Below are positions 29,418 to 30,771 of a stretch of 40,255 nucleotides of DNA, piece after piece. The notes beneath the pieces were generated by a model, which was given only the letters and a program-made list of their open reading frames with translations, was not told the origin of the DNA and did not search any database. Location of the stretch: IMG/VR virus record IMGVR_UViG_2874951433_000007, positions 1-40,255 of that record, one strand, 5' to 3'. Position 1 is the stretch's first letter; each line of letters begins with the position of its first letter. A program made the translations under genes and the position numbers. This DNA is from a virus. Taxonomy: Duplodnaviria; Heunggongvirae; Uroviricota; Caudoviricetes.

Positions 29418-29458
29418 AGAATACTACAGGTATTCAAAGCAATCAATACTCAGGGTAT
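29418..29458. promoter_or_regulatory. OR operators (ATACnnnnnGGTAT) overlapping PR (-35 TTGATT 29441..29446, -10 TATTCT 29418..29423, minus strand)
   Basis: atactacaggtat (29421..29433) and atactcagggtat (29446..29458); mirror-image pair at OL; promoter hexamers with 17-bp spacer. Confidence 0.55.
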
Positions 29459-29494
29459 TTTTAGTTTAAGTACCTTAGCTATTAGAATTAAGCT

Positions 29495-30211
29495 ATGGAA
29501 AATAAAAAATCACTGACGACAGAACAGCTCGAAGACGCTAAGCGGCTTAAGGCTTTGTATGAGTCAAAAAAGAAAGAATTGGGAATAACCCAATACTCAA
29601 TCGCTGATGAACTGGGTATCACCCAAGGAGCGGTAGGGCATTATCTTAATGGCAGAAACGCGCTAAACGTTGAGGTTGCATCTGGTTTTGCACGATTGTT
29701 GCAAGTCTCAATTGCTGATTTTAGCCAGTCAATTGCTGCCAAGGTTGCAGAACAGGCAGAAAGCCTTAAGAGCGATGCCAACGTAAGGTATGCAGGGGAA
29801 TACAGAGCAGGAAAGAGGTATCCGGTGTTAAGCAGTATCCAGGCTGGCTCGTGGTGTGAAGCATGCGAACCATACACCATTAAAGACATAGATGTTTGGC
29901 TTGAGTCTGACGCGCATATTCAAGGTAATGCGTTCTGGCTTAAAGTGGAAGGTGATTCAATGACGGCACCGGTTGGGTTAAGCATTCCAGAGGGAACATT
30001 CGTTCTTTTCGATACCGGACGGGAGGCGATCAACGGCAGCTTGGTCATAGCAAAACTTTCTGACTCTAACGAAGCAACATTCAAGAAGCTGATAATCGAC
30101 GGCGGAAATAAATACCTCAAGGGACTTAATCCTGCATGGCCTCTCGTGCCAATCAATGGAAACTGCAAGATTATAGGCGTTGCAATTGAGACAAAACTAA
30201 GGCTGGTTTGA
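29495..30211 (+). CDS. cI: CI repressor (HTH + LexA/S24-like C-terminal domain)
   Basis: 238 aa; KKSLTTEQLEDAKRLKALYESKKKELGITQYSIADELGITQGAVGHYLNG similar to recalled lambda cI but divergent; FWLKVEGDSMTAP cleavage-domain motif. Confidence 0.85.
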   Translation: MENKKSLTTEQLEDAKRLKALYESKKKELGITQYSIADELGITQGAVGHYLNGRNALNVEVASGFARLLQVSIADFSQSIAAKVAEQAESLKSDANVRYAGEYRAGKRYPVLSSIQAGSWCEACEPYTIKDIDVWLESDAHIQGNAFWLKVEGDSMTAPVGLSIPEGTFVLFDTGREAINGSLVIAKLSDSNEATFKKLIIDGGNKYLKGLNPAWPLVPINGNCKIIGVAIETKLRLV

Positions 30212-30228
30212 TCACGCAAGGGGCGATT

Positions 30229-30597
30229 ATGGTTGGAACCGCTATAGCAAGCTTTTTGGGGATGTTGGCAATCTCAACAATTTACGGCTTAGCGCATGCT
30301 TTTATTGCGAAATCTCTATCAGAAAAAATAAGCCAGGCTTGGGCGCATAGATCAGCTCGTTTCATGATTCTGGTGATCATGGCAATACAAGGGATATCTG
30401 CATTTATCCTCTATGGATCAAGCTTATACCTATTGTATCAAGGCGCGACATTTACGTCTTACACCAGTGATTACGGAACTCTATACGATGGTAGTGAAGA
30501 CATCTCTATGGCTTGGATCGTCTTTGGTTTATCTATGGCCGTGTCTGTTGTAGCAGACATCATTAAGGTAATTCTCGTCTTAACCTTCGCTGACTAA
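30229..30597 (+). CDS. Small 3-TM inner-membrane protein co-transcribed with cI (rex position); candidate exclusion protein
   Basis: Start ATG 30229 (aagggg RBS) just after cI stop; three hydrophobic helices; no recognisable family. Confidence 0.6.
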   Translation: MVGTAIASFLGMLAISTIYGLAHAFIAKSLSEKISQAWAHRSARFMILVIMAIQGISAFILYGSSLYLLYQGATFTSYTSDYGTLYDGSEDISMAWIVFGLSMAVSVVADIIKVILVLTFAD

Positions 30598-30730
30598 CTC
30601 ATAATCCCGGCAGCAATAGCTATCGGGATCCACTTCACATATCCCGCATAAAAAGCACTGAACAAGCAGACACCGAAAAAAATAAATATCTTTTGTATTC
30701 ATTTGCTTATCATTATTTCACCCAAAATAA

Positions 30731-30771
30731 ATACCTTGGGTATTTACACAATAAAATACCTACAGTATTCT
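30731..30771 (+). promoter_or_regulatory. OL operators overlapping PL (-35 TTTACA 30743..30748, -10 TATTCT 30766..30771)
   Basis: ataccttgggtat (30731..30743) and atacctacagtat (30756..30768), same spacing as the OR pair. Confidence 0.55.

Follow-up and report, generated by a model that had tools for sequence, protein, structure and literature searches.

Predicted OR and OL operators of HK620 immunity specificity in a P22-like mosaic prophage, with a tentative relocation of OL3

The stretch of viral DNA studied here (IMG/VR record IMGVR_UViG_2874951433_000007, positions 1 to 40,255, hereafter "the window") carries around its cI repressor gene a small family of symmetric sites that are very probably the right and left operators (OR and OL) of a lambda-type lysis/lysogeny switch with the immunity specificity of phage HK620. 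A sequence-only reading of this DNA had pointed to four 13-bp sites, two at OR (ATACTACAGGTAT, 29421-29433, and ATACTCAGGGTAT, 29446-29458) and two at OL (ATACCTTGGGTAT, 30731-30743, and ATACCTACAGTAT, 30756-30768), and we found all four in place, with the 25 bp claimed between centres in both pairs (29427 to 29452 at OR, 30737 to 30762 at OL). The pattern given for them, ATAC-N5-GGTAT, is a slip of notation: at 14 bp, it exceeds the sites by one base and finds no match, and the sites listed fit ATAC-N5-GTAT. The 13-mers are exact as far as they go, but the true extent is 17 bp, the full operator unit being the pseudo-palindrome N-AATAC-Y-N3-R-GTATT-N. The interpretation of the sites as operators appears to stand, with corrections only to the pattern, the extent, and a third site at OR.

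The motif is rare in the window and confined to the places where operators would be expected. AATAC-N5-GTATT occurs four times in 40,255 bp against 0.03 expected, a count reached by none of 100 shuffles, and all four copies adjoin the cro and N promoters only; the shorter ATAC-N5-GTAT occurs five times in the window against 0.26 expected, and again no shuffle out of 100 reaches five. Allowing one mismatch in the longer pattern adds a single site in the window (30685-30699), and at up to two mismatches, the matches include 29469-29483, between OR2 and the cI start. A looser pattern, ATACCNNNGGTAT, searched at up to two mismatches, is not enriched in the window (12 matches, 9.9 expected) and is unsuited as a test.

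The 17-bp units overlap the promoters of the switch in an ordered way. At OR, OR1 (GAATACTACAGGTATTC, 29419-29435), a perfect 6+5+6 palindrome, overlaps the −10 of PR, the promoter for cro; OR2 (CAATACTCAGGGTATTT, 29444-29460), with its centre 43 bp ahead of the cI ATG, overlaps the −35 of PR; and OR3 (AAGTACCTTAGCTATTA, 29468-29484), a weak site with two core mismatches, lies between the −35 and −10 of PRM, the cI maintenance promoter. At OL, the perfect palindrome OL2 (AAATACCTTGGGTATTT, 30729-30745) overlaps the −35 of the leftward promoter PL, and OL1 (AAATACCTACAGTATTC, 30754-30770) its −10. A third site had been remarked not to be obvious in either region; at OR it does exist as OR3, and at OL it is uncertain. 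Three related pseudo-palindromes overlapping PR and PRM, together with a second cluster over the leftward promoter upstream of N, make up a lambda-type arrangement. The −10 hexamer TATTCT, said to be shared by PR on the minus strand and PL on the plus strand and to be overlapped by the sites, is found in both. PR was read from the sequence on the minus strand, with −35 TTGATT (29441-29446), a 17-nt spacer and −10 TATTCT (29418-29423), which appear in the plus-strand letters as AATCAA and AGAATA, respectively; PL, on the plus strand, has −35 TTTACA (30743-30748), a 17-nt spacer and −10 TATTCT (30766-30771), and scores 9/12 in a promoter scan. They lie inside the features annotated as pR and pL in HK620.

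Indeed, these operators are already known, having been in public annotation since 2001. A 1.84-kb segment of the window (29150-30990, cro-cI-hkaS-PL-N) is 98.9-99.1% identical to HK620, mEpX2, HK630, HK140, HF4s, phi296, and phi367, and the HK620 record (AF335538; Clark, Inwood, Cloutier & Dhillon 2001) bears features for OR1-3, OL1-3, pR, pL, nutL, nutR, and tIMM. The OR region is identical between HK620 and the window at 131 of 131 positions, and the HK620 coordinates therefore transfer directly there: OR1, OR2, and OR3 map to 29419-35, 29444-60, and 29468-84, and pR to 29411-46. On the OL side, where the alignment has an indel, OL2 and OL1 map to 30729-45 and 30754-70, pL to 30743-78, and the annotated OL3 to 30707-23. 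OL1, OL2, and PL are also identical, and the two sequences differ by a few substitutions and one indel upstream of OL2. A comparison with known lambdoid immunity groups had been suggested as a check; it returned the four sites base for base as HK620 OR1, OR2, OL2, and OL1. The N-terminal 94 aa of CI are 98.9% identical to HK620 and 100% to mEpX2, so that both the DNA-binding domain of CI and the operator sequences are those of the HK620 immunity group. Outside the immunity region, the prophage is a mosaic nearer to other P22-like phages (such as Kapi1, CUS-3, and Sf101) than to HK620, and the rest of the window can be described as a P22-like (Lederbergvirus-type) mosaic prophage. The immunity module is present in 148 of 5426 complete E. 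coli genomes, and one chromosome, NZ_CM142696.1, is 100% identical to the window across a 201-bp OL stretch (30600-30800). What is new here is the phylogenetic support for the operators, the refined 17-bp motif, a rationale in terms of Gln and Ser contacts, and a proposed correction of OL3.

In order to compare more distant relatives, we searched with the CI protein, keeping one genome per species, and obtained 80 loci. In 25 of these, the CI, 43-76% identical overall, shares the recognition helix of the window CI, [ST]QG[AG][VI][GA]HY[LIM]N; the genera represented are Lelliottia, Siccibacter, Enterobacter, Tatumella, Lonsdalea, Serratia, Pantoea, Providencia, Proteus, Yersinia, Pectobacterium, Scandinavium, Kluyvera, and Microbulbifer. 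In these relatives, the motif stands at about −66, −42, and −19 from the cI ATG (−68, −43, and −19 in the window). An OR1 counterpart lies between −65 and −79 in 25/25, an OR2 counterpart between about −42 and −54 with at most one mismatch in 23/25, and an OR3 counterpart between −18 and −25 in 21/25; all three are present in 19/25 (matches at up to two mismatches). OR3 has one or two mismatches in each of these relatives and never none, an imperfection that fits a deliberately weak site. Downstream of cI, at least two copies of the motif recur in 22/25. Over 91 distinct sites from the relatives, positions ±7 to ±3 (AATAC/GTATT) hold 1.3-1.85 bits each, position ±2 (Y/R) holds 0.8 bit, and the three central positions hold only 0.01-0.04 bit; conserved arms and free centres in a fixed register read as the signature of a dimeric helix-turn-helix (HTH) operator. 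The OR triplet was found in 0 of the 55 loci whose CI has another helix, where the few matches belong to a sister motif, TATAC-N5-GTATA. In six of the loci (L019, L020, L022, L023, L028, and L030), the CI helix is TKGAVSHWLN, and the sister operator (G/A)TATAC-N5-GTATA(T/C) is present at OR and as 25-bp-spaced pairs at OL.

A position weight matrix (PWM) built from the relatives only places as its top six in the window OR2 (24.1), OL2 (22.7), OL1 (20.7), OR1 (19.9), a site centred at 30692 (14.9), and OR3 (12.0), ranks 1 to 6 in that order and all in OR or OL; the relatives' sites were chosen by a consensus derived from the window, so these scores are partly circular, whereas the fixed register in the relatives is not. 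Lower matches were set aside. Two of them, ATACCTATTGTAT at 30426-30438 (an exact 13-mer, PWM −3.9) and CAATACAAGGGATATCT at 30383-30399 (PWM −2.6), fall in the hkaS-like open reading frame (ORF) downstream of cI, are without the flanking A and T, and are probably due to chance. Two others, at 28119 (10.4) and 28131 (8.9), are within the shuffle null (mean maximum 11.0); they lie in A+T-rich DNA of an O-like replication gene (27734-28624), near the counterpart of the replication origin annotated in HK620.

Apart from the partial circularity of the scores, several points weigh against reading the sites as operators. Clear sites at OL number two only; PR scores 8/12, under the scan threshold of 9, and is for that reason absent from the scan list; the operator features of the HK620 record appear to be sequence-based annotations; and we found no footprint, electrophoretic mobility shift assay, or genetic operator mutant for the HK620/mEpX2 immunity type in the literature searched, the original HK620 paper being inaccessible. 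One may then ask whether the palindromes are a chance symmetry of A+T-rich DNA or mere promoter elements, the GTATT arm supplying the TATT of a −10, with no repressor role. The region is A+T-rich, and in OR1, OL1, and OR3, one arm indeed shares bases with a −10-like hexamer (TATTCT, TATTAG/TAGAAT). However, conservation is symmetric over both arms, including the one that is clear of any promoter hexamer, and this is true also of OR2 and OL2, whose only promoter overlap is with a −35; four exact cores are present where 0.03 would be expected; and over the 25 loci, the arms are kept, the centres are free, and the motif goes with the recognition helix of CI. We, thus, give this explanation a negligible chance of being right, and we keep to the reading of the sites as operators.

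The proteins expected to bind them are of the lambda type, as had been proposed. CI aligns to the full-length lambda repressor (3bdn, E = 2.9e-52, residues 3-232), and Cro is homologous to lambda Cro (1cop, E = 4.7e-19). The operator differs from that of lambda, also as proposed: the lambda consensus TATCACCGnCGGTGATA has no match in the window at up to three mismatches, so that the operators are not those of lambda immunity. Written in the lambda register (8+1+8 geometry), the half-site is N1-A2-A3-T4-A5-C6-Y7-N8, against T-A-T-C-A-C-C-G in lambda. The lambda residues that read base pairs 2 and 4 are Gln44/Ser45 in CI and Gln27/Ser28 in Cro (PMC5222340). In the window, the Gln is retained in CI (...TQGAVG...) and in Cro (...IQCAIS...), and base pair 2 is still A; in the alignments, the Ser is replaced by Gly in CI and by Cys in Cro, and base pair 4 has gone from C to T. 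The loss of the Ser in both proteins would, thus, match the C-to-T change at operator position 4. The code published for Cro pairs Gln at H1 with A2, Ala at H3 with A5, and Lys at H6 with C6 (PMC6649833), and the Cro helix found here, Q-C-A-I-S-K, satisfies all three pairings.

These contacts bear on whether the operators might serve only CI, only Cro, or another regulator, with CI acting elsewhere. In Microbulbifer, the motif coexists with a non-lambda-type Cro, so that it is not strictly dependent on a lambda-type Cro, which leaves some room for such a division. On the other hand, the motif accompanies the recognition helix of CI from locus to locus, the helices of CI and Cro share the pattern of a kept Gln and a replaced Ser, and cI aside, there is no HTH gene between cro and N. 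A site family for one protein alone, or for a different regulator, is, thus, very improbable, and we retain operators common to CI and Cro. The three Microbulbifer loci (L060, L062, and L063) have the same CI helix and AATAC-N5-GTATT operators, and the gene in the cro position has the helix TQGMVSAW.

Geometry and homology together suggest how such a switch would work, including the order of affinities and the cooperativity of binding. CI dimers would bind the 17-bp pseudo-palindromes, as would Cro dimers in lytic growth. On OR1 and OR2, CI would cover both the −10 and the −35 of PR and switch off cro and the rightward early genes; on OL1 and OL2, it would cover PL and switch off N and the leftward early genes. 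If the cI ATG is the PRM start, as is likely, OR2 is centred at −43, the activating position of lambda CI, and CI bound there would be predicted to activate PRM. The weak OR3, between the PRM −35 and −10, would allow cI to be repressed at high CI or upon Cro binding. The candidate PRM −10, TAGAAT (29483-29488, plus strand), directly follows the right arm of OR3 and ends 6 nt short of the cI ATG. In the window and in all 22 enterobacterial relatives (23 sequences), this arm runs straight on into a TANNAT hexamer situated 5-7 nt ahead of the start codon of cI. A script returned a distance of 6 nt in 17 and of 5-7 nt in 20 of the 23; in the remaining ones (L016, L017, and L026), it took a nearer chance hexamer, and the printed sequences, read by eye, give 5 or 7 nt. 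As this distance leaves no room for a Shine-Dalgarno sequence, the cI mRNA is probably leaderless, as in lambda, and starts at the cI ATG.

The equivalent of the OL3 annotated in HK620 (TTATCATTATTTCACCC, 30707-30723) contains no operator motif, has a PWM score of −34.4 (rank 15326), and holds columns that are polymorphic among six near-identical E. coli/HK620 copies. Another candidate, AAATATCTTTTGTATTC at 30684-30700 (3057-3073 in locus L001), is the only further match in the window at up to one mismatch and ranks fifth in the window by PWM. Its centre is 45 bp from that of OL2; it lies 23 bp upstream of the annotated OL3 and about 86 bp upstream of the PL start. Both of its arms are kept in the six E. 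coli/HK620 copies, where only a central base varies, and the same 45+25-bp spacing is found in five diverged loci (L007, L008, L009, L059, and L026), with a perfect core in L026.

One has to keep in mind that this candidate is embedded in an A-rich element, AAAAATAAAT(A/T)(C/T)C...TTCA (about 30672-30702), situated about 80-95 bp upstream of the PL start and conserved in nearly all enterobacterial relatives (L002-L018, L026, L059, and L086), heteroimmune ones included. The element is kept even in relatives where the true OL3 is 21 bp from OL2 and the element is without a GTATT arm; it may have a role other than that of an operator. It is because the element is conserved also where it is not an operator that 30684-30700 is uncertain as one, and we put its being a real CI/Cro site at somewhat under an even chance. 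A core for integration host factor (IHF), WATCAANNNNTTR, is found at up to one mismatch in several relatives, about 59 bp from the OL1 centre, and is absent from the window and HK620 in a simple core scan. One of the heteroimmune loci, L086 (E. coli NZ_CP148427.1; 1198-1312 and 2440-2640), is a prophage that shares the PL-downstream flank of the window; its CI differs (helix SQPAIQKM), its OR holds three operators of the form ATAAC-N4-GTTAT, and its distal PL-upstream element bears a GTTAT arm of its own.

The HK620 annotation implies, conversely, that OL3 is at 30707-30723, which would leave 30684-30700 as part of a conserved A-rich element upstream of PL with another role, such as DNA bending, an IHF- or UP-like function, or the end of the immunity transcript. 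HK620 indeed annotates tIMM over the distal candidate, genuine OL3 sites are 21 bp from OL2 in many relatives, and the conservation of the A-rich element without a GTATT arm would be explained. What makes this placement unlikely is that the annotated sequence ranks so low and varies among near-identical copies, whereas 30684-30700 comes fifth among all sites of the window, with one mismatch, arms kept in six copies, and counterparts at the 45-bp spacing in five diverged loci. We tentatively propose that the third leftward operator of the HK620 type might be the distal site, within the A-rich element, and not the adjacent one given in GenBank; the OL3 feature of the HK620 record would, thus, merit another look.

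As a whole, the region (29150-31250) has, in its ORFs and Pfam domains, the layout of a lambdoid immunity region. On the minus strand are a cII-like gene (28807-29088) and cro (29194-29388, 64 aa from ATG; Pfam Cro PF09048, 3.6e-26). The start of cro is ambiguous, an in-frame GTG at 29394 giving 66 aa and the ATG at 29388, used by the HK620 annotation, giving 64 aa. On the plus strand, cI (29495-30211, 238 aa) encodes a repressor with HTH_3 and Peptidase_S24 domains; cro and cI are divergent, with about 100 bp between them, as in a lambda-type switch, and HK620 has both genes annotated as such. Between cI and PL lies a hydrophobic ORF of 122 aa (30229-30597, plus strand), named hkaS in HK620, for which we found no Pfam family. 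It occupies the place of rexAB in lambda, is presumably transcribed together with cI in lysogens, and has a possible role in exclusion or lysogenic conversion. After it, 370 bp of non-coding DNA lead to the N antiterminator gene (30966-31238, plus strand; Pfam N_peptide, 1.1e-15), first in the PL operon and annotated as N in HK620.

Beyond a correct annotation, the significance of these sites is small. They would determine the immunity specificity of a prophage type common in E. coli, and with it which superinfecting phages are excluded and the manner in which the prophage is induced. The well-supported 17-bp motif could improve automatic operator annotation, and the comparative set offers a clean natural example of a lambda-like recognition logic, in which the Gln is kept and the Ser and base pair 4 change together. 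Should the distal site be OL3, the OL geometry would differ from the tight OL1-OL2-OL3 of lambda, and hence any share of OL3-OR3 looping in PRM repression would differ as well; one immunity specificity would then also be common to prophages from Enterobacterales to Microbulbifer.

The likeness to lambda is otherwise extensive. As in lambda, cI and cro diverge around a tripartite OR made of 17-bp sites with an odd centre, OL lies over PL upstream of N, OR1 and OR2 are over PR, OR2 abuts the PRM −35, OR3 is over PRM, and cI is apparently leaderless; half-site positions 2, 5, 6, and 7 (A, A, C, C/T) are the same. The centres of the OR sites are 25 and 24 bp apart here and 24 and 23 bp apart in lambda. 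Half-site positions 3-4, in contrast, are A-T instead of the T-C of lambda, the CI N-terminal domain is just 53% identical, OL and OR are separated by about 1.3 kb instead of about 2.4 kb, and a small membrane-protein gene takes the place of rexAB. A second system to be compared is phage epsilon34, whose predicted operators are WTACRAWWTGTAT (PMC2629481). Together with the relatives bearing the TKGAVSHWLN helix (L019-L030), it shares with the window the ATAC...GTAT core and the 13/17-bp geometry, and it differs in having TATAC-A-N3-T-GTATA where the window has AATAC-Y-N3-R-GTATT, as well as a different N-terminal domain; epsilon34 and these relatives are presumably heteroimmune to the HK620 type.

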